Assembly: GCA_964106645.2 (NCBI GenBank)
Contig: OZ067045.1
DNA length: 64,000 nt
Reading direction: 5' to 3' (one strand)
DNA from: Podarcis pityusensis
Lineage: Eukaryota
In this document: piece by piece, positions 42,501 to 60,900 of the stretch
How positions within the stretch are numbered: position 1 is the first letter of the stretch
Layout of the letters: each line of letters starts with the position of its first letter
The notes under the pieces: generated by a model
Database searches by the model: none
What the model was told of the DNA's origin: nothing
Seen by the model: the letters and a program-made list of their open reading frames with translations, nothing else
Program-made: the position numbers and the translations under genes

Positions 42501-42932
42501 GACTGGCAGGCACCTTTGTAGGGTTTCAGGCAGGAGTGCATGGCATACCTGCCTGGAGATGCCTCTGGAGCATTTTATATGAAAAGCATGTGCTCTATCA
42601 ATTAGCTATGGGACTTATAAAAGTAGTGTTCTGTTGTAAATGTGCTGCCTGTTTGAAATGTATCCATACATATATTTTAGTAGTAGTTTCAGTGCTGCTT
42701 TTACTGTATGTATTTTCATAATGGATTTTGTAAGTCACTACAAGATGGAAGCATTGTAGAATAAAAAAATGTAAAAATTAAAAATCAAGAAACTAATTGG
42801 AAATTCTTTAAGGACAAAATTTACCTGATGGAAATCTTTACCGCTACTTTTACCATCGCCACTGAAATCCACATGCGAGAATAGACAGCGTAGTAAATGC
42901 CTGTCTGCCTCAGGGCCGTGCCGATTCACAAT
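440..42932 (-). CDS. CNOT1: CCR4-NOT transcription complex subunit 1, multi-exon CDS (exons 3-45 visible; start codon in gap, 3' exons outside window)
   Basis: 43 exons with AG/GT(GC) boundaries splice in one frame (6501 nt) and translate to recognisable CNOT1, from [18 protein letters not shown] to [10 protein letters not shown]. Confidence 0.98.
684..732. repeat. Compound (CAT)n(CAC)n microsatellite
   Basis: Direct read of the sequence; intronic. Confidence 0.95.
880..1090 (-). mobile_element. Degraded LINE 3' fragment (L2-like)
   Basis: Resembles related relics near 43880-44100 and 56030-56185; boundaries approximate. Confidence 0.5.
1270..1401. mobile_element. Palindromic hAT-type MITE
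   Basis: Core gactacaactcc...ggagttggagtcc with inverted ends; same family as 46332 and 49450. Confidence 0.7.
1537..1710 (-). CDS. CNOT1: CNOT1 exon 44
   Basis: [20 protein letters not shown]...PFTPNLK, 174 nt. Confidence 0.95.
1981..2082 (-). CDS. CNOT1: CNOT1 exon 43
   Basis: [34 protein letters not shown], 102 nt. Confidence 0.95.
3519..3636 (-). CDS. CNOT1: CNOT1 exon 42
   Basis: [25 protein letters not shown]...PQQK, 118 nt. Confidence 0.95.
4617..4780 (-). CDS. CNOT1: CNOT1 exon 41
   Basis: [27 protein letters not shown]...TLTAF, 164 nt. Confidence 0.95.
5340..5588 (-). CDS. CNOT1: CNOT1 exon 40
   Basis: [18 protein letters not shown]...NLLNK, 249 nt. Confidence 0.95.
7986..8217 (-). 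CDS. CNOT1: CNOT1 exon 39
   Basis: [12 protein letters not shown]...AFSAFVGQ, 232 nt. Confidence 0.95.
9139..9230 (-). mobile_element. 60-bp 5'-truncated LINE 3' end with 16-bp target-site duplication
   Basis: agacatatcacatggt at 9139-9154 and 9215-9230 flanks an insert with a (TAAA)n tail on the minus strand. Confidence 0.8.
9486..9511. repeat. (TCA)n microsatellite
   Basis: Direct read. Confidence 0.9.
9577..9746 (-). CDS. CNOT1: CNOT1 exon 38
   Basis: [19 protein letters not shown]...GNAPEG, 170 nt. Confidence 0.95.
9837..9945 (-). CDS. CNOT1: CNOT1 exon 37
   Basis: [21 protein letters not shown]...LHLAQ, 109 nt. Confidence 0.95.
10786..10928 (-). CDS. CNOT1: CNOT1 exon 36
   Basis: [21 protein letters not shown]...KQITR, 143 nt. 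Confidence 0.95.
11506..11697 (-). CDS. CNOT1: CNOT1 exon 35
   Basis: [15 protein letters not shown]...LGLLQK, 192 nt. Confidence 0.95.
12182..12301 (-). CDS. CNOT1: CNOT1 exon 34
   Basis: [22 protein letters not shown]...QPMK, 120 nt. Confidence 0.95.
12405..12509 (-). CDS. CNOT1: CNOT1 exon 33
   Basis: [18 protein letters not shown]...EQIRLK, 105 nt. Confidence 0.95.
12592..12732 (-). CDS. CNOT1: CNOT1 exon 32
   Basis: [26 protein letters not shown]...KRLAT, 141 nt. Confidence 0.95.
14382..14678 (-). CDS. CNOT1: CNOT1 exon 31
   Basis: [15 protein letters not shown]...NSFATALR, 297 nt. Confidence 0.95.
14794..14924 (-). CDS. CNOT1: CNOT1 exon 30
   Basis: [26 protein letters not shown]...LNPT, 131 nt. 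Confidence 0.95.
15398..15575 (-). CDS. CNOT1: CNOT1 exon 29
   Basis: [14 protein letters not shown]...PPITTT, 178 nt. Confidence 0.95.
15854..15931 (-). CDS. CNOT1: CNOT1 exon 28
   Basis: [26 protein letters not shown], 78 nt. Confidence 0.95.
16398..16508 (-). CDS. CNOT1: CNOT1 exon 27
   Basis: [25 protein letters not shown]...SVRSV, 111 nt. Confidence 0.95.
16708..16824 (-). CDS. CNOT1: CNOT1 exon 26
   Basis: [26 protein letters not shown]...PILHT, 117 nt. Confidence 0.95.
17204..17324 (-). ncRNA. Candidate box H/ACA-like intronic RNA, family unassigned
   Basis: Hairpin (GGAGC...GCTCC), AAATAA H box, hairpin (GGAG...CTCC), ACA plus 3 nt, in sense within intron 25. Confidence 0.4.
17580..17759 (-). 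CDS. CNOT1: CNOT1 exon 25
   Basis: [15 protein letters not shown]...YRNIK, 180 nt. Confidence 0.95.
18732..18872 (-). CDS. CNOT1: CNOT1 exon 24 (GC donor)
   Basis: [12 protein letters not shown]...SNMTQK, 141 nt, donor AAG|GCAAGT. Confidence 0.95.
19548..19778 (-). CDS. CNOT1: CNOT1 exon 23
   Basis: [18 protein letters not shown]...FKKDVP, 231 nt. Confidence 0.95.
20880..20958 (-). CDS. CNOT1: CNOT1 exon 22
   Basis: [26 protein letters not shown], 79 nt. Confidence 0.95.
21150..21400 (-). mobile_element. CR1-type LINE 3' end relic
   Basis: acaagaagaacctgctg...aaaggcccatctagtc motif typical of reverse CR1 tails; boundaries approximate. Confidence 0.55.
23078..23364 (-). CDS. CNOT1: CNOT1 exon 21
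   Basis: [10 protein letters not shown]...LDRFKNR, 287 nt. Confidence 0.95.
24179..24303 (-). CDS. CNOT1: CNOT1 exon 20
   Basis: [27 protein letters not shown]...MSVDE, 125 nt. Confidence 0.95.
26920..27063 (-). CDS. CNOT1: CNOT1 exon 19 (longest form; alternative acceptor 27060, alternative donor 26935)
   Basis: [26 protein letters not shown]...FQQSKMKP, 144 nt. Confidence 0.92.
27339..27543 (-). CDS. CNOT1: CNOT1 exon 18
   Basis: [16 protein letters not shown]...LSSQLP, 205 nt. Confidence 0.95.
28094..28229 (-). ncRNA. SNORA50: Box H/ACA snoRNA SNORA50 (ACA50)
   Basis: Two hairpins, H box AGATTA, ACA plus 3 nt. Pocket 1 (ATCTTTGA/CAAGCA) pairs with 18S UGCUUG-U34-C-UCAAAGAU; pocket 2 (ATAACT/TTTAA) pairs with 18S UUAAA-U105-C-AGUUAU. 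Human SNORA50A is CNOT1-hosted. Confidence 0.93.
28360..28510 (-). CDS. CNOT1: CNOT1 exon 17
   Basis: [20 protein letters not shown]...ISPVQ, 151 nt. Confidence 0.95.
29234..29385 (-). CDS. CNOT1: CNOT1 exon 16
   Basis: [16 protein letters not shown]...LQACAG, 152 nt. Confidence 0.95.
29614..29736 (-). CDS. CNOT1: CNOT1 exon 15
   Basis: [27 protein letters not shown]...IREHG, 123 nt. Confidence 0.95.
31041..31160 (-). CDS. CNOT1: CNOT1 exon 14
   Basis: [18 protein letters not shown]...VAQDLK, 120 nt. Confidence 0.95.
32176..32416 (-). CDS. CNOT1: CNOT1 exon 13
   Basis: [16 protein letters not shown]...YAWHGQ, 241 nt. Confidence 0.95.
32985..33112 (-). CDS. CNOT1: CNOT1 exon 12
   Basis: [21 protein letters not shown]...REIATW, 128 nt. 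Confidence 0.95.
33422..33683 (+). mobile_element. 5'-truncated Sauria SINE
   Basis: Reverse-complement similarity to the 45726-46078 copy; lacks the tRNA head; ends ggtcaggggtccctctacctttt. Confidence 0.88.
33748..33918 (-). CDS. CNOT1: CNOT1 exon 11
   Basis: [18 protein letters not shown]...WKHAEGQ, 171 nt. Confidence 0.95.
35183..35293 (-). CDS. CNOT1: CNOT1 exon 10
   Basis: [13 protein letters not shown]...LIDVLKEL, 111 nt. Confidence 0.95.
36359..36485 (-). CDS. CNOT1: CNOT1 exon 9
   Basis: [13 protein letters not shown]...DGIPLQ, 127 nt. Confidence 0.95.
36890..37058 (-). CDS. CNOT1: CNOT1 exon 8
   Basis: [16 protein letters not shown]...GYGFCT, 169 nt. Confidence 0.95.
37950..38153 (-). 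CDS. CNOT1: CNOT1 exon 7 (GC donor)
   Basis: [15 protein letters not shown]...FLKTLRR, 204 nt, donor GAG|GCAAGT. Confidence 0.95.
39190..39244 (-). CDS. CNOT1: CNOT1 exon 6
   Basis: [18 protein letters not shown], 55 nt. Confidence 0.93.
39633..39986. mobile_element. Tc1/mariner-superfamily non-autonomous element
   Basis: TA|CCGTATTTTT...GGCGCAC left end; GTGCGTCC...ACGG|TA right end (internally deleted TIR); CpG-rich interior. Confidence 0.7.
40090..40890 (+). mobile_element. Degraded CR1 LINE 3' region
   Basis: CR1 ORF2 C-terminal-like motifs (gagctacaaaaagtgcagaaaagggcaa; gacatgatagaggtctataaaattatg); boundaries approximate. Confidence 0.7.
40906..40974 (-). CDS. CNOT1: CNOT1 exon 5
   Basis: [23 protein letters not shown], 69 nt. 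Confidence 0.93.
41412..41510 (-). CDS. CNOT1: CNOT1 exon 4
   Basis: [33 protein letters not shown], 99 nt. Confidence 0.95.
42825..42932 (-). CDS. CNOT1: CNOT1 exon 3
   Basis: [36 protein letters not shown], 108 nt. Confidence 0.95.
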
Positions 42933-42987
42933 CTAGTTACAAGAAAAACAAAAGAGCTGAAGCGAGGTACCATAGCATTTGTAACTA

Positions 42988-43128
42988 CATAGAATCACAG
43001 AACTGTAGAATTGGAAGGGACCCTGAGGATCATCTAGTCCAACCCCCTGCAACACAGGAATATGCAGCTGTTCCTTATGGGGATTGACCTTCAACCTTGG
43101 TGTTTATCAGCACCATGTTCTAACTGAG
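42988..43128 (-). mobile_element. Short tRNA-derived SINE with CR1-like tail
   Basis: catagaatcacagaactgtagaattggaagggaccc...tctagtccaacccc tail plus degenerate tRNA-like head. Confidence 0.6.
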
Positions 43129-43729
43129 TGTTTCTACCACCTTCAGCTGCACTCTTAAGGAGCAGGAGCCACACAGCTTTCTGGCAGGGTCCATGCTAGT
43201 AGCAAAAAGGAGAAAATAAGGGAAAGTCACAGAGTGTCCAGGTCACATTAAACTACAGTTTAAACAAGTTTTGGTTTAACATGACTGAACAGTGTGGTGG
43301 TAAACACTGCTCAAATGCCACAGCGTCTGACTTCTGATGTCACCCGAACCTGGGCTCTTAGTTGGTTTCCCAAAAAAAGAACTAAAGTGGCAAGCCAAAA
43401 ATGAACTTTGTTTAATGCTCGTGGTTTGTCAGGCAACATGACAAGCCAGACTGAAGGGGGAAGCAAGTACAGCAGCAAGTGACCCTAGCAGTCTTTCAGA
43501 GGTTCAAATGGGCTAATGACCCAGAAAAATAGGGAGGGCTGAGAACCACTTTGTAAAAATGAAAAGGGATATAATTTAAATTACTCTTTAATAAACAGAA
43601 AATCTGCTTGCTTTTAAAGTAGAGCATGTTAGCACTAAGCAAAAGAAAATAAAAAAGCAACCTAAATATATTGCATAGTATGCATATAATTGAGGTAATT
43701 CCTGTTGAGTCCAGAATCGAAGATTTGTC

Positions 43730-45425
43730 ATTTATTTATTAGATAACAAATTTATCTGGGTTACTTATATTAAATATAAAAGCTATTTTAATACAAAGTA
43801 AGTTCTACAACCAAAAGCAGCATAAATATAACAAGAAGGCAACTGCACAGCAACCCCAAAATTAAAAAATATTTTAAAAATTGAGAGGCCCAAACCACAC
43901 CACTCTTTCAGAAGGCCTGAGTGAAACAAAAGATTTTACCTGGTGGCCAAAAGACCACATGAATGGGATAATACAAGCCTCCCAGAGATGGCTGTCTCAT
44001 AATCTGGGTATCACAACTGAAAGATTACCGCCCTCACTTATTTTGGTGGGGGCACCAGGAGCAGGGCCTCCAAAAGATCTTAAGGTTCAGGTAGGTACAC
44101 AGCTTGCCATTTATAAACCAGCACTTTTAAATTAGCCCCGGAAACAGATGGAGAACCAGCACAGCTGAACAAAACACAGGCATAGTATGATCAAACTGCA
44201 CAGTCTTAGTTAAAACCTTTGAACTCCTGTTCTGAACCAACCACAGTTATTGGACCATTTTTATAGGCAGTCCCACATACAATGCAGTGCAATAGTCTAA
44301 ACGGGAAGTCAACAGAGGATGGGCAATTGTGGCCAAGGTATCACCGCTCAGGCAAGGTCAAAGCTGGTGTATCCACCAAAGCTGAGAATAGGTAATTTGA
44401 GTTGTGAGATCATTTGAGCCTCCAGTGCTGGATCAATAAGCACCCCCAGTTGGACACCTGATCCTTTAGGGAGAGTAGAACACCATCTAGAACAGGCTGA
44501 ATACTATTCACCTGGATAGATAAACCAAGCAAACAGGGCAGCCCAACTTTTCATACTAAGTGGGCTGCAATAGTAATTTGACACAGAGCCCATGGGCTGC
44601 ACACTGCCTTGTTGCACACATGGGAGCATGGCCAAAATTTGATGCTGCCCCCCACCCTGCCACCTTCACACTGCCTTTGTAAAGCTGCCTAAGTGAGGCA
44701 CCAGGCTTTGGAAAGGAGGCATGAAGCTCCATTAGGGTCCTACAGTTCTGCCACCTCCTTCCCAAAGCCTTGTTAGCTCTTTCCCAGCTTCGGGAAAGAG
44801 GTGGGAGGACTCTTAAGACATGGTTACAGCCCTCAGTCTTCCTTCCCAAAGCCCAGCTCCTCACTTAACCAGCTTCGGGAAGACAGTGTGAGGAATGGGG
44901 TGGGTCTGTGTCAAATGTTGCAGAGGCTGCCAAAAAAAGCCTCAAGGGCCACATGTGGCCCTTAGGTCACGCAATGGACCACAGTGAACCAATCAATACC
45001 TCTAATCTTCTGTGACTATGGGCAAGAGGGTTTCCACTTGCACAGCAGGGCTTTCCTTGCTCTCCTCCTTCCACTACCCCCAAAATTGGCTGCAAGGGGA
45101 GGTCAGAAGAATCCCCAAAACAATGCACAGGAAGAAGAGGGAGGATCATTCCATCTGGCAAGCTGCACTGCTTGTACTAATAGGGACTTTCATCATAGTG
45201 TGATGTTCAATTCCACCCTGAACCTCTGTTTTTCAGAGTTCAGCCAGTTCATTGCCATGCCCAAGCAGTGTGCACAGCCTCACTTGCATGTGATGAGCAA
45301 TAAATATAAAGCTGAGTATCATCTTCATTCCGGTGACACCTTCAACCAAATCTTCAGATGCTCTTTCTCAATGGTTTCATCAAGATGTTAAACAGTGTGG
45401 GCAGATGAATAGAACTCTGCAGAAC
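43730..45425 (-). mobile_element. Degraded L2 LINE (reverse-transcriptase remnants), interrupted by a younger insertion at about 44535-44968
   Basis: Minus strand reads SRLDYCTALYVGLP near 44265-44310 and PTLFNI..MKPL...EDDTQLY near 45300-45420; boundaries approximate. Confidence 0.7.
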
Positions 45426-45725
45426 AAGCATCAAGCAGTACCTCCCAAACTTAAACCAGACAGCTGAACTGAAAGGACATTATTATTAATGGCACTGAAC
45501 ACTACTGAGAGGTCCAGGAGAATCAACAAGGTTCCATTTCCCATCTGCCAGCAAAGATAAGCCTACAGGATGACCAGAGTAATTTTTGGCTCCAAACCAG
45601 GTTAGAAGCCTAACAGAAATGGATCTGGGTTAGGAACCTTTGGCCTTCCTGATGTTGTTGAATCACAACTCCTATTATACTGTGGAACCATAAGAGGGAC
45701 AGACAATTCAAAACTAATCTGATAA

Positions 45726-46078
45726 GGTAAAGGTAAAGGGACCCCTGACCATTAGGTCCAGTCGTGGCCGACTCTGGGGTTGCAGCGCTCATCTCGCTTT
45801 ATTGGCTGAAGGAGCCGGCATACAGCTTCTGGGTCATGTGGCCAGCATGACTAAGACGCTTCTGGCGAACTAGAGCAGCACACAGAAACGCCGTTTACCT
45901 TCCCGCCAGAGCGGTACCTATTTATCTACTTGCACTTTTACGTGCTTTTGAACTGCTAGGTTAGCAGGTGCAGGGACCAAACAAAGGGAGCTCACCCCGT
46001 TGCAGGGATTCGAACCGCCGACCTTCTGATCAGCAAGTCCTAGGCTCTGTGGTTTAATCCACAGCGCCACCCGCGTCC
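45726..46078 (-). mobile_element. Full-length Sauria SINE
   Basis: A box TGGCGCTGTGG, B box GGTTCGAATCC, (ACCTTT)n tail, TSD aatctgataa at 45716-45725 and 46083-46092. Confidence 0.93.
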
Positions 46079-46331
46079 ATACAATCTGATAAAGCACCTC
46101 TCAAATAATTTTTCCCTGCCTAAAGCTTCGTAAAGGACACTGGAAGCTTATTACTGAGCAGCGGAAGAAGAGAAAGCAGCTTTTTGCCAGTGCTGTCTTT
46201 TGATAATGTGTGTGCAATGAATCACATATTGGCTGTGTTTGCACATAAACTGTGGTTAATGTTATTTAACAGACCATGACTCACCTCACAGACAAGCAAA
46301 CAACTCACAGCTTGTTTACTTCGTATCAGAG

Positions 46332-46473
46332 CAGGTGCGGGGAACTGTGGCGCTCCAGATGTTGCTGAACTACAACTCCCATCATCCCTGACCCTGGCCA
46401 CTAGCCATGCTTACTGAGACTGATGGGAGTTGTAGTTCAGCAGCATCTGGAGGGTCAGAGGTTTCCGACCCTG
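46332..46473. mobile_element. Palindromic hAT-type MITE
   Basis: tgaactacaactcccatca...tgatgggagttgtagttca inverted arms. Confidence 0.85.
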
Positions 46474-46828
46474 TTCTAGATAATCAGATTCATCTAAGAA
46501 TAATTAGAATGAGCAGATCCCTACTCTCTTGACCACCTTGGGAGGGAGGATTTATTTACAATTTTCTATTTTAAAAAATACTTACAGCCCCACACATCAC
46601 CAAATGGACATGGAAATTTTATACAAAATATCAGTTGAAAACAATATATAGCTCATTAAAATCCTAAGCTAAATTCAGAAAACTAAACAAAATCACAAGA
46701 GCAACAAAACAGGAGTGCAGCAATACAGCAGAAGGGAAAGCATCCACTTGCCTGAAAGGCTTGGTAAAGAAGCATGTCTTAACTTGACACTGAAAATGTT
46801 ACAATGACACACCCCAGAAGGGAAATAA

Positions 46829-46856
46829 ATAATAATAATAATAATAATAATAATAA
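46829..46856. repeat. (AAT)n tract, tail of a short retroposon end also seen near 18090-18150
   Basis: Followed by cccacccatctggctgggcttctccagccactctgggcgg, repeated near 18106-18147. Confidence 0.75.
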
Positions 46857-48651
46857 TTTATTACTTATACCCCACCCATCTGGCTGGGCTTCTCCAGCCA
46901 CTCTGGGCGGCAGCCCTCTCATTTGTCACTAGTATTCAGTTGTTTGGCGCTTTTTATATTAACATCTTAGATTGGGCTCAGCAGCAAATTGGCAACCAGC
47001 ACAAAATCTTTCAGGACCAGCATAAGGTGAGCCCTAACAGAAATACCCAGCAGTAACCTAGCTAGCTCCTGTATTATGTACCAGTTGCAGCTTCCAAACC
47101 ATCTTCAAGGGGAACCCCATAGAGTGCACTGCAATAAACTGATAAGCAAACATTAGCCACTGGCCTATAGTTAATATTATCTGGATCCAGGCTGGGCCGA
47201 CTTGTAGCTTCTTTTAAAGAAGATGCAACAGCTCATTTTGTCAATGAAGAAAGAGCAAGTGTGAGTTTAAGCACAGGGGGTTTCCTTATATCTTCTGCTG
47301 TGAATTCATTCAGCTTCTCTGCATTCACCTTTTCTTCCTTTAGACAGCTTTTGACTCCTTTACTGTTCAAAGGTCCAGCTGTCTCCCTAGATGGTCTCCA
47401 ACTACTGAAGTATTTTGTGGTTGTTGATTTTTGTTTTTAGCAGCTGTCATCCTCAAATTCTTTTTTTGCATTGCTTATTGTCTGCTTGCAATATTAAAGT
47501 CTTATTTCCCCCTTCTACATGCATATTTTATAGTTTTGTTTTTCATGTTTTAATTTTGGTCTTTTATAATTGTTCTCCATATTATATACACTATAAAATG
47601 AAAATTTAAAACTTTACAAAAGAATCAGTTATTTAAAGACCTTAAACACAAAAGTTAAAAAGTATTTGAAAGTTGGATGTAAACAAGGATCAAAGTAGTA
47701 TACTTCTAAGTAGTACTGAGTATAAGACCTTTCAAGTGAAGACCAGAACACACCGTTAACCAAAAACCCTCTGCCAGCTTCAAAAGTTTGCAGGAAAACT
47801 AGGGCAGCAACAACGTGGGCATATGGTGCCACAAAGATGTTGCCCTGAAGTAACTGTTCTTCAGGTCACTATATTTCATGCTACACTTCTTCCACATTCA
47901 CTTTTTCACATCTCATGCAGGTTGAGAATTAAATGACATTACTAGCCACACTGGGCAGGGAACTGAAAATCTGAAGGTTCACTTCACTGTTTTCACCATC
48001 ATTTCCACCACCAGTACCAGCCTCAATTCTTTTTTTCCCTTTTTTAAAAATCTAACCATTCAAAAAAGGAATGCAAAAAAAGAAAGAGGCAACTACTTTT
48101 GTAACTATGAAAAACACAAGCCAGAATGAACAATTTTCATTTAATAAGGAAAACAGACAGTAATAACACTTGCAATAAATTCACCCTAGAATGAACTAAG
48201 TATTGCCAATTTAATTTTGCATTAAACTACTATAAGACATTGCAAGAAGGTCAGAACAGGCTGATTTTAAATACTCAAAAGAACTCTGTTATAAACATGG
48301 AAATGAGCAATAACTCTACAGGACCACTGAGTAATTAAAGCCAATGTCGTAAATCAATTCAGGTACAAACAAACAAAAAAAGATGAAATAACAGGATAAA
48401 TAAGATATGAAACAATTGTCAACTCCCAGCAAGCAAAATATAGTAAGATCTTAGTGGCCTGTGGTGTTTTGCACTACAAATCACATCAACCAGTTAACAT
48501 GGTCAGTGGTCAGAGCTGTAATCCACAACATCTGGAGATTACCAGATTGGGGAAGGTTGTTCTAGCAACTAAACCAATCAAGCAGTGAGAAGTAGGAATA
48601 TAAACAATACAAACTAAGTTGTGGATACCCTTTTCATTTATTTTTTTTAAT

Positions 48652-48855: not shown

Positions 48856-48944
48856 TTTTTTTCCAGTTAGCCTATATAATCAATTTATGCTGTATGTTCA
48901 GCTCTTCTTTCCCAGTATTCTCACTCTGTTCTGAACCATGGCAC
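48856..48944 (-). other. CNOT1: CNOT1 exon 2, visible 5'UTR portion
   Basis: Acceptor TTTTGTCTTGCAG|GTGCCATGG; resembles the mammalian CNOT1 exon 2 UTR as recalled; runs into the gap. Confidence 0.85.
48898..48939 (-). promoter_or_regulatory. Upstream ORF MVQNRVRILGKKS* in the CNOT1 5'UTR
   Basis: GCCATGG Kozak context, 13 codons then TGA. Confidence 0.7.
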
Positions 48945-49449
48945 CTGCAAGACAAAACAGCAATGATTATACATAATCTATTTGCTAGTGACTGGTCATG
49001 TATAACTAAACAATCGTAAATGTAATGATGGTACAGGCCAGAGTTTTATGGGAAAGCACTTGCTTTGCAAGCAAAAGGTTGCAGATTTGATAAGGCTGTT
49101 AAAGGCAGTTTGAACTATAGTTTATTTCAGGGGTCAGGAACTAGATCCGGCCCCGAGGGCTGAATCCAAAACTGCCACACCATCTGTGAACCACCTTCAA
49201 CTGAAGAATCAAAGAGCACTCAAAGTACACTCTGGATACTTTCCAGCCCCAAATTTAATTAAAATTGGGACTGCAGAGGAAGTTTATTCCGCAGAAGAAT
49301 ATTCTGCCACTTACCCTTCCAAAAGGAGGGCTTGTATTTGACATTGAATTTCAATTCAGCAATGAAAGAGAGTCAAGGATCATCTGCATTTGGGAGCTAA
49401 AAGGAACAAGTGGCAGATCACGGTAATGCTCCCAATTGTTTCTCTAGAG

Positions 49450-49587
49450 CAGCGGTTCTCAACCTGTGGGTCTCCAGATGTTGTTGGACTACAACTCCCA
49501 TCACCCCTAAGCTCTGGCCTTGCTAGCTAGGAGTGATGGGAGTTGTAGTTCAACAACATTTGGGGATGCACAGGTTGAGAAAGGCCG
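49450..49587. mobile_element. Palindromic hAT-type MITE with 8-bp TSD
   Basis: TIR ttctcaacctgtg/cacaggttgagaa; flanks ctctagag (49442-49449) and ttctagag (49588-49595). Confidence 0.88.
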
Positions 49588-50534
49588 TTCTAGAGCCACA
49601 GCAGTACCTGCCCCACACCTGAAGTCATAGGTGAGTGTGGCATGGGAGAAAATGGTATTGAAAGTCAATCTGGGGCTACAGGTAGGCTTGTGGTTATTCA
49701 AAGCCAGCATCATAAGCCACAGTCTGAAGTTGCCCTATTCAGACAAACCAACCAGAGTTAAAACTAACCACATTTGGCCCTAGTTTGGGCATAACAAGCC
49801 ACTCCAAGGTGGAATAAAAAACAAGTGCTTTCGACTTCCTCCTCTAGGTTGCACTGGAAGAGGGAAGTAGTGCACAAGCCAAAGAACACTAAAATCCCTG
49901 TTTAGTGTATTGTCCAAATACAGTCAATGAGTCCAATAGGAGCAAAAGACTATTTTATTCAGATCTATAGAATTATGAAGAGTCTTCACTTGTTAATGAG
50001 AACACAGGAGTTTATTTACACTTTCAACAGCATGAAGTGTCATGTATAAGATGTGTACCCAAGTGCCAAATCCCAATTATTGTTTTAAGCAAATATACAA
50101 TTTTTAAAAATAATTTTAAATGATCTGTTCATTGGCATTTGCCTCTCTTGACGGAAGCTTATCATCAGGATTGTAGATTTCTTAATAGGTTATTGTCCTG
50201 CCAATATAGATTCCAAACTTATGAAATGATAAAATTGCTTCATGTTTACAAGGCAATCTTGAAATCTTCACAAGTTTTGCTTTCAGATTTTACAGGCCAT
50301 TTCCAAGACCAATGCGGAAAAGATTGCAAGGCCTGAAATTCTGCTGAAGAAAGATGATCATTCTGTAATATATGGAGAGAAGTGGCATTGATTTGTGGAT
50401 GGACTGAATATGGGACAAAAGCAAAAAAAAAAGTCAGAGAAACAAAGATTTCATCCTGATGAAGTGGGCAATAGAGGAAGTGTAAATGAGATTGGTAGAC
50501 GGGAGGAAAGATGAGACGTTTGGCTGTGTATGTA

Positions 50535-57869: not shown

Positions 57870-57956
57870 TCAGATGTAGCTGGCTTTGGAGAGGAAGCAT
57901 TCAAACATCTTCTGAGCTTGTCCAGGCTTATACTGTGGAACCATGTGACCAGCACC
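57870..57956 (-). CDS. Cathepsin A-like last coding exon
   Basis: GAGHMVPQYKPGQAQKMFECFLSKASYI*. Confidence 0.92.
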   Translation of the reverse strand, partial: GAGHMVPQYKPGQAQKMFECFLSKASYI

Positions 57957-60900
57957 CTATATATGAGAGGGAAGATGCTTTAGAAAAGAGCTGATAAAGT
58001 ACATCTGAAATAATTCCCCCCTGCCCAAAACATTGTGAAGGATACTGGAAGCTTATATTGAACAGAGCAAGAAGAGGCAACATCTGTGTGAAGGAGAGAA
58101 AGCAACTTTTCGCCAGTGCTGTCTTGATAATGTGCGTGCAATTAATCACATATTGGCTGTGTTTTCACATAAACTGGGGTTAATGTTATTTAACAAACAA
58201 GCCATGTATTGTTTATTTAGAGCAGTTGTTGCTGAACTACAACTCCCATCATCATTAGCCATGCTTGCTGGGACTGATGGGAGTGGTGGTTCAGCAACAG
58301 CCGTCAAACCAAAGGTTCCCCACACCTGCTTAGATCTTATTTTGTTTTCTAGCTACTCTTGCGTCATGCCTTCCCAGCTTGAGGAGCATCTTGGGTAACA
58401 GGTAGGGAAAACAAGCATAGTTAAGCAGGGTTGTTAGGTTCATAAGTAATGTTAAACCATAGTTAGAATAAGCCACGATTTTTAAGCCAATACCAAGCCA
58501 TGGCTTCACATTGTCATTTGCTGATAGAAAATAAACAGGCTAGTTTGCTGATATGTTTTCACATGTTCAGACAAACCACAGTTACGCTAAACAAACCATA
58601 GTTTAATGTTACATGAGAACCAGGTCTTTGTTACAGGGCCCAGGATTACACCTAAGCCCTTTTAATAATGGGTCTCTCCAGCTTGAGAAGCTATTGCCTC
58701 CAACGTGTTTTCTGTTGGCTGCTTATGCTCTAGCTCTGACCAGCATTTTTTATGGGACACTGCACACACACACATATGTCATAGGTGAGGGACTGGCTGC
58801 TTCTGTAGGGTACATGGAACAGGTGGCAGGTCCTGTTTAACCGTGTACTAAAATCATAGTTGTCGCTTGATGGGGAGGTGATCTAGCAAGCAATAGCATT
58901 TCCCAGGCTAGAAGTAGTGTAAACTCAATCAAGCCATGAGTGCCAAACCCCACCACCACCATGTATTGGGGGCAACATTTTATTTGCTCTGTCTCTGATT
59001 GGTAGTCAGTGCAGCAGTTTCCCCCAGGCTTTTTCTTAAAGGTTTATCCTGGGAGCAAAAAGCCTAATTTTTAAGGGCAGAAGATTCCCAATGTAAAGCT
59101 GTTACCCAGATCAGCACTTTTGCCTGCTAGGACCCATTTTGGCAAATAAATAAAAGGTGCTTCCTCCTCCTAGAACCTGAAGGAAAAGCTGGAAAAGTAG
59201 AAGTAGCAATCTTTTATAACCCAATGCTTTATATATTGGCTTTATTTACTGTTGGAAGAGGGGTCAACCTTTTTTTGTGGCTGTGTTGGGATGAAATCTG
59301 TAAAGCAGTTACTGGGCCCATCACAAACCTCTATCTTGAGAGCCATGTCATGCTTAAAAAATAACTGAGCCCATATAATGTGCTTTCTAAACAAGGTTTT
59401 GGCTCTGCTCCTGCTTTAAAGTATTGGCTGTTAGTGTTGCTCTTCCTGTTTTTGTGTTATCCTGCTGTTTATAAACTTGTTATTTTGTCTTTTAATTATT
59501 AGCTTGTTGCTGATTTTTACTGCTTTGAGTAACACTGTTGTACAGGGGAGAAGCAGGGCATAAATCTTTTAAATAATGAAAAGTATAATGCCCACTGGCT
59601 CCGATTAAATCACTGACCTTTACGGTGAGAAATGTGATCTTCTCATACTCCTTGAAAAATCCTGCAATCTGATCATTGAAATACCAGGGCTGGTAATCAT
59701 TTAGCACCTGTGGAATTAATGAAAAAGAAGGTCACAACCTGGAAATGGACAGCAGACCGAATTTTAGTGTACATACTAGTCTATCACGGATGCTCCAAAA
59801 CTGGCTCTTAATAGACTTATTACTCCAGATCATGTTTTGCTAACTTTCTCTTCATCTCTGCCCATCCATTCTAACTTCTTTTCTAAATGACAGCTTGGTT
59901 ATGTCTTTAACAACAACTGTACATCTGTCAGTGTTGGAAACCTGGGTCTAAAAGGCAGGTTCAGCTGTGTCTTCCCACATAAATTAAGGAGCAATAGGTT
60001 TTCAATACAGTACAACACTTAAGCTATGCAAAGTTCAAAGGAGTTACTTACAGTCTGATTTAAAGACTCAACAAACTTTTCAGCCCCCAAGAAGTTGCAG
60101 GCCATGTCCACGTCTCCATTATAAACCAATGCTCGTAGGTCCTGAGCCAGCAGATACTTGTAGAAGGGAGTCATGTCTCTGTACACCCTTTGGTAATGAG
60201 AGCTAACCTGTGTACTGCATGGAGAAGAGAAATGCATGGGGGTGGGGTTCAAGGAGCTTGGGCCCCTCATCCCTTCTCCCCTTTGTTTCACCAGTAAGAT
60301 CAACCAAGGGTGCCCTTTTGATTTTGTCACCAAGATGCAAATCCAAGCTGCCAAGAGAATGCAAGTTGGGGTTCTCATTGACTGCCAACAGCCACAGAAT
60401 TCCTTTCCTGCCCCTGCAGGCCTATCAGAATATGAGCATGAGCCAAGGCCATCCACCACCAAGTGGTTTCAAGAGGAAATGATGCTGAATATACAAACCC
60501 ATACCTATACTCTATACCTTGCCCCAGAGGAAGAATAATAAATCAGCTGGGGAGAAATAAATGTTCCCAACCTTAGCGGTCCACAATTGAGACAAATATC
60601 CTTTATAATTTAATCCAGTGATGTCTGGAAGGCAGTTTGTTTTACAACTGTTTTCAGAATTCTCATACAATTGAGATCCAACTTATTAGTTCCAGCCAAA
60701 ACCTCTTAATGCCCAGTAGTAGCAGTTAGTTGTTGTATTCATTGTCTCTTTTAAGGAAAACCATCTAAGCCACAATAAGACATTTTAATGGGAAATGGTG
60801 GTAAGCATCAGTACTTAGAATACAGAAAAATGCACAACTATGCTAGGTGTGAATGAACGTGAGGATTAGCCATGTGGAAAACCTTACCCTTGGAGGAGTT

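Follow-up and report, generated by a model that had tools for sequence, protein, structure and literature searches.

Results

CNOT1 and its cathepsin A-like neighbour

The window analyzed here is a stretch of 64,000 nucleotides (C8:37510001-37574000) of the 1.5-Gb genome of Podarcis pityusensis. It holds the CNOT1 gene, which is encoded on the minus strand and runs leftwards from a GC-rich island at 54-56 kb. The CNOT1 exons were matched one by one with CNOT1 proteins, residue 35 being at position 42932 and the following exons onwards from there. CNOT1 residues 1-34 were not found in the readable sequence by protein mapping, and a strong splice acceptor (13.4 bits) was present at 48944, about 90 bp before a stretch of N. 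The intron studied here had been called CNOT1 intron 2 in an earlier sequence-only reading of this DNA. That it is an early CNOT1 intron is upheld, whereas the number 2 is tentative because of the missing first 34 residues and the acceptor at 48944.

Upstream of CNOT1, on the same strand, lies a gene of the S10 carboxypeptidase type, referred to here as the cathepsin A-like gene. Its best protein match is a lacertid "lysosomal protective protein-like" protein (98%), and all of the residues of that protein (488/488) map to exons at 68010-57873 without a stop, so the gene is intact. The gene belongs to the "lysosomal protective protein-like" group, with matches in lizards, alligator, marsupials, elephant and fish. 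Only about 2-3 kb separate its 3' end from the CNOT1 CpG island. The coordinates of the features at the locus are given in Table 1.

Table 1. Features of the copied tract, its donor and the host intron (window coordinates).
Feature	Position	Strand	Basis or remark
CNOT1 exon that begins with residue 35 and bounds the host intron on its downstream side	42825..42932	-	protein mapping
Lone left MITE arm, family positions 1-55, 14-nt end type	45625..45678	+	family alignment
Left junction TTAT (microhomology)	45675..45678	+	identical to donor 57928-57931; 3/4 match to MITE positions 52-55
Copied piece of the last exon (MVPQY codons), followed by the 20-bp deletion	45675..45691	-	alignment; 17/17 identical to 57928-57944
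Copied intron, first part	45692..45725	-	alignment; last 10 bases are the left TSD of the SINE
Sauria-type SINE	45726..46082	-	(ACCTTT)n tail, TSD starting with T
Copied intron, second part	46083..46331	-	alignment; includes the low-mismatch stretch 46186-46299
Full-length inner MITE, likely a hybrid (donor MITE: left arm and center; resident MITE: right end)	46332..46473	+	
8-bp right flank, hAT target type	46474..46481	+	4/8 match to the flank of the lone arm
Last exon (with GAGH motif) of the intact S10 carboxypeptidase gene, lysosomal protective protein-like	57870..57956	-	Pfam S10; acceptor AG at 57958-57957
Donor stretch (partial last exon, beginning of the last intron, donor MITE)	57928..58328	-	alignment

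A 401-bp tract of the cathepsin A-like gene has a single decayed copy in CNOT1

The 401-bp donor tract has one decayed copy, at 45675-46473 in the early CNOT1 intron. Copy and donor are on the same chromosome and in the same orientation, 12,253 bp (12.3 kb) apart. An alignment of 46086-46274 with 57991-58198 gave 78% identity (E 1e-43). With the SINE removed, a self-comparison that the sequence-only reading had proposed, 45675-46331 aligned end to end with 57928-58222, and 213 of the 252 columns outside the MITEs were identical (84.5%, K2P 0.176); the MITE parts of copy and donor matched at 95/115 bases. The alignment confirmed the collinear, same-orientation relationship with the region 57928-58335 that had been described from the sequence. 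All three exact matches quoted in that description were present where it had placed them, and the MITE that it saw at the same position in both copies is accounted for, the inner MITE and the donor MITE both belonging to the copied tract. No homology was found beyond either junction, where the flank scores were reached by 136/300 and 107/300 shuffles.

When the whole genome was searched with either the copy or the donor, each query returned two places, namely the copy and the donor themselves, both counts being lower bounds. The 17-mer of the last exon was found at exactly two places in the window and beat 300/300 shuffles. A dispersed high-copy repeat combined with a chance 17-mer match, the outcome that would have undone the sequence-only reading, is ruled out by these two results. 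No other two-copy duplication of non-repeat DNA turned up in 264 kb around the window. Two further candidates were rejected. An assembly artefact is ruled out, because the copies differ by about 16% and one of them carries a SINE with its own TSD. As for the remnant of a paralogous tandem gene, the upstream exon had no second genome-wide match, homology did not extend past the junctions, and the 488-residue cathepsin A-like protein mapped once in the 264 kb.

The direction of copying is clear, from the cathepsin A-like gene into the CNOT1 intron, because one copy consists of a working exon and intron and the other is broken. The inclusion of intron in the copy supports the proposal that the copying took place at the DNA level.

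The copy lost 20 bp and later received a SINE

The copy lacks 20 bp that are present in the donor (57945-57964) and that hold the GAGH codons and the splice acceptor. The loss of both, already apparent from the sequence, is thus a 20-bp deletion. An ATG repeat flanks the deletion at both edges, and no selection is needed to explain it.

The SINE is bounded by a 10-bp TSD (45716-45725 and 46083-46092), which starts with T on the SINE's own strand. An (ACCTTT)n tail together with a TSD beginning with T is described as the signature of Sauria SINEs (PMC13295347), and our assignment rests on this signature rather than on an alignment to a named consensus. The SINE differed at 20/352 bases from the majority of its 11 best matches. 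Because this value is below the approximately 9% per lineage accumulated since copying, and because the SINE sits inside the copied tract, it was inserted after copying, as the sequence-only reading had held.

The copied tract lies between two outer ends of one MITE family

We defined a 138-bp MITE with 8-bp TSDs from the 29 best genomic matches. Its arms form a near-perfect palindrome through position 54, with the first loop mismatch at position 55. The 8-bp TSDs were seen in family members such as L027, L040 and L052, and 11/40 members matched at 6-7 of the 8 bases, compared with 2% of unrelated pairs. We provisionally take the family to be of the hAT type from the TSD length.

The lone arm (45625-45678) and the right end at 46473 both belong to this family. 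The lone arm stops precisely where the stem of the family palindrome meets the loop. The four bases with which it closes, TTAT, also open the donor tract. The left junction had been described as adjoining a lone MITE left arm, and it does so, the arm ending at 45678. With 87 MITE-like loci in 664 kb, it is unlikely that an arm would adjoin the junction by coincidence, and we infer that the lone arm is the left half of a resident MITE. The fold of the inner MITE is a single long hairpin (-48 kcal/mol), and the element differs from the family majority at 12/136 bases. Taken together, the two outer ends of a hAT MITE enclose a 401-bp piece of the cathepsin A-like gene, and the observation is real, old and single-copy.

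The donor MITE (58223-58328) is without about 25 bp of its left arm, which were lost between two CAG triplets after copying, and it carries a block of clustered changes at family positions 110-118. Elsewhere in the genome, two pairs of near-identical MITE loci with shared flanks were found, L035/L036 (C15:5788398 and 5762903, 25 kb apart) and L040/L046 (C13:32121165 and 32102176, 19 kb apart), which suggests that segments were duplicated locally. Variant sites often differ between the arms of a single MITE (L102-L161), but in some MITEs (L112, L115, L137) both arms carry the same variants, hinting at occasional arm-to-arm conversion in the family. A second palindromic MITE of a related subfamily, with other terminal letters and a near-perfect 8-bp TSD, is present at 49442-49595. 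Within the same CNOT1 intron, 44666-44891 is an imperfect inverted repeat of 226 bp (68% self-complementary) and is probably another decayed palindromic element.

The inner MITE is likely a hybrid

The inner MITE and the donor MITE share their left flank and two rare central changes, A67 and A83, which occur together in 1 of 44 scorable members (60 fetched). Because the left flank and these changes are common to both, the inner MITE was copied along with the tract. The sharing did not extend to the right side. Of the changes in the donor MITE, the inner MITE has 2/3 to the left of position 85 and 0/10 to the right, a difference with a Fisher p of 0.04 when counted by site and 0.14 when clustered changes were counted as single events.

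The lone arm and the right tip of the inner MITE both have a 14-nt end, whereas the right tip of the donor MITE has the usual 15-nt end. A pattern for the 14-nt end, which was designed from the two outer ends after seeing them, matched exactly at these two ends only and at one mismatch at 6 other places; the pattern for the 15-nt end had 538 matches. Among the decayed far ends of family members, 2/40 had a clean 14-nt form and 9/40 fitted the 14-nt form better, the 20/60 members that could not be scored having been dropped. A subfamily of MITEs with 14-nt ends was considered and rejected: the strict pattern matched this locus only, and the 6 looser ends had no clear 14-nt partner.

The outer TSD of the composite matches at 4/8 bases, confirming the earlier observation that no clean 8-bp TSD surrounds it. 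True family TSDs score 4 in 7/40 members and unrelated pairs do so in 17%, so that the outer TSD is uninformative on the pairing of the outer ends. The right flank of the donor also ends in TAGAT, as does that of the copy, with a 5/8 match at a one-base shift. From the shared and unshared changes and the end types, the inner MITE is likely a hybrid of the donor and resident MITEs. It is only likely because the 14-nt pattern was made post hoc, some other ends are 14-nt-like, the TSD matches at 4/8 and the p value by event is 0.14.

Discussion

Repair synthesis between two MITEs as the probable origin of the copy

We think it probable that a break in the resident MITE was mended by repair synthesis and that, in this single step, the 401-bp piece was copied between the ends of the element. 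The resident palindromic MITE would have been broken at the tip of its hairpin. The end with the right arm would then have invaded the MITE 12 kb away, which was very similar at that time. The two MITEs were still much alike when copying occurred and thus made a good homology pad, because the 12/136 divergence of the inner MITE is about that expected since copying. Leftward synthesis would have proceeded through the donor MITE and the intron into the last exon, taking along about 300 bp of host DNA, and the new strand would have rejoined the left arm through microhomology, leaving an orphan arm and a hybrid MITE. Neutral decay would account for the later SINE and for the 20-bp deletion, which may have come from slippage at the ATG repeats while the tract was being copied or afterwards. 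The sequence-only reading had named MITE-templated repair as one of two routes, and the stem-loop junction, the microhomology and the shared MITE changes all support it.

The same final sequence is reached by duplication followed by deletion. Unequal crossing-over between the two MITEs could have duplicated 12.3 kb that hold the promoter and first exons of CNOT1 as well as the 3' end of the cathepsin A-like gene. All but 0.4 kb could later have been lost in a deletion that began in the middle of the resident MITE and reached as far as the last exon. These two steps predict the same orphan arm, direct orientation and hybrid MITE, and close direct duplicates of MITE-bearing loci do exist elsewhere in the genome (the pairs L035/L036 and L040/L046). 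However, the second event would have to place its left end exactly at the stem-loop boundary of the MITE, and neither another remnant nor another two-copy stretch was found in the 264 kb. We consider this course of events unlikely.

It is also unlikely that one-step repair copied the whole donor MITE together with its right flank, in which case the lone arm would be the sole remnant of the resident MITE and there would be no hybrid. None of the 10 changes in the right arm of the donor MITE is shared, and the donor's right end has the 15-nt form, whereas that of the copy has the 14-nt form of the lone arm. Such copying does agree with the two right flanks, which both end in TAGAT and match at 5/8 with the one-base shift, and with the non-significant result of the hybrid test by event (p 0.14).

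The sequence-only reading had offered Pack-hAT-like capture as another possibility. Here template switching or end bypass would have produced the composite close to the donor, and a hAT transposase would then have cut it out and pasted it 12 kb away. TIRs are present at both outer ends, and the burst of the MITE family and the copying are close in age, the 12/136 of the inner MITE being similar to the per-lineage divergence since copying; a transposase may therefore have been active. Against transposition, the composite is single-copy, no further copies with distinct TSDs having been found genome-wide (lower-bound counts), and no clean outer TSD was found (4/8). At the left junction the donor has coding sequence and not a TIR-like arm, and the right end of the donor differs from that of the copy. 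Moreover, the multicopy Pack-TIRs described as transposed were all distant from their donors (PMC8277862). Capture followed by transposition thus fares poorly with a single copy, no clean outer TSD and no left arm at the donor junction, and we regard it as very improbable.

Insertion templated by unspliced cathepsin A-like pre-mRNA would fit the sense orientation of the copy to both genes, and intron content alone would be compatible with such a template, but neither poly(A) nor a TSD is present at the junctions, one of them falls within homology between the MITEs and the donor is only 12 kb away, which leaves this route scarcely credible.

Relation to known repair-mediated duplications

One-sided invasion, or ectopic SDSA, between dispersed repeats is known from experimental breaks, one end being extended by homology-primed synthesis and the other being joined. 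The present locus resembles this process in having one homology-primed and one end-joined side, which here we infer from an old germline product.

Tan et al. (2021) reported 370 Pack-TIRs in 100 animal genomes, mostly single-copy and in cis, 208 of them with hAT elements; microhomology and internal breakpoints were described, and these Pack-TIRs were attributed to gap filling without transposition (PMC8277862). Our locus likewise has non-TE DNA between two ends of one TIR family and a unique parental copy. Like the single-copy Pack-TIRs, it holds host DNA, part exon and part intron, between hAT ends in a single copy, with a cis donor closer than 15 kb (160/281 of theirs), microhomology and a breakpoint inside the element, and its size is near their 224-bp median (PMC8277862). 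Unlike in those cases, a same-family MITE lies at the breakpoint in the donor and within the copied tract, the identity of 84% is under the 90% cut-off, and one junction consists of long homology rather than microhomology (PMC8277862). According to the filters described for that survey, parents with a TE within 100 bp were excluded, as a guard against segmental duplication, and at least 90% identity was demanded, which favors young cases; this locus would drop out of the survey because of both filters (PMC8277862). The survey's table gives 0 cases for the one lizard genome scanned (PMC8277862). Pack-MULEs and multicopy Pack-TIRs, for which the FoSTeST model was put forward, also hold gene fragments between TIRs, but they are transposed, often multicopy, far from the donor and flanked by distinct TSDs, none of which is observed here (PMC8277862).

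Pace et al. (2009) described 824 repair-mediated duplications within 5 kb in human and left out duplications that include part of a repeat (PMC2671141). As in their SDSA duplications, a TE is interrupted, the insert is found at one other place, the donor is intrachromosomal and there is no poly(A); the insert is within their size range (minimum 50 bp, up to 619 bp), and partial exon/intron donors occur there as well (PMC2671141). The distance of 12,253 bp, however, exceeds the 5 kb of their confident proximal class, and none of the genomes that we found named there is a squamate (PMC2671141).

The locus works like the repair-mediated duplications and the single-copy Pack-TIRs. We call it a variant because it works like both classes yet falls outside some of their operational criteria. 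In a literature search that covered few subscription papers, nothing turned up about this locus, about squamate Pack-TIRs or about any named MITE of this type from lacertids. The copy can be read as the well-preserved fossil of an event in which repair, primed by homology, copied DNA between two short palindromic transposons, in a lineage very rich in such elements. The designs described for both vertebrate surveys exclude this variant (PMC8277862, PMC2671141). Its anatomy of orphan arm and hybrid MITE is instructive for repair-mediated local duplication. If many such composites exist genome-wide, they would add a measurable route by which exons and regulatory DNA are shuffled locally in squamates.

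Splicing and possible function of the intronic copy

The sequence-only reading had proposed that loss of the sense-oriented acceptor protects CNOT1 from exon trapping. Acceptors were scored with a crude matrix built from 33 acceptors of the two genes, on which true sites scored from -0.1 to 17.1 in leave-one-out scoring. The lost acceptor scored 7.1 bits, and 14/368 AG sites at 42960-48600 scored higher. The 20-bp deletion itself lifted the AG at 45679 to 8.3 bits, from 4.6 in its donor homolog, and the AG at 45718, at the SINE tail, scored 9.3 bits; both are among the 14. No poly(A) signal was found in the 400 bp that follow, where 8 GTR sites are present, none of them a good fit to the donor consensus by eye. 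Protection from exon trapping is therefore unsupported, because the deletion made an acceptor-like site that scores above the lost one, 14 AGs score higher and there is no poly(A) signal. The same reading had the fragment "jump the CNOT1 promoter", a phrase that is accurate for the geometry of donor and copy only.

The intronic copy is most likely neutral, and such local copies are a known kind of event that is probably harmless. As a single decayed copy in an intron, it changes little.

One part of the copied intron is better preserved than the rest. Between 46186-46299 and 58112-58196 there were 4 mismatches in 85 columns, against about 30% at 45706-46133, and a CCAAT motif is kept in both copies (46228 and 58152). 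The permutation p value was 0.007 with an 85-column window, a size chosen after looking, and 0.16 and 0.09 with windows of 50 and 70. The low mismatch could stem from later gene conversion, from chance or from constraint on a shared element that bears the CCAAT motif. The donor intron is about 3 kb upstream of the CNOT1 CpG island. It is a long shot that hairpin MITEs of lacertids act in pairs to copy host DNA, one breaking at its loop and the other serving as template or landing pad, and that a regulatory element copied in this manner was kept here as a second, intronic enhancer of CNOT1.
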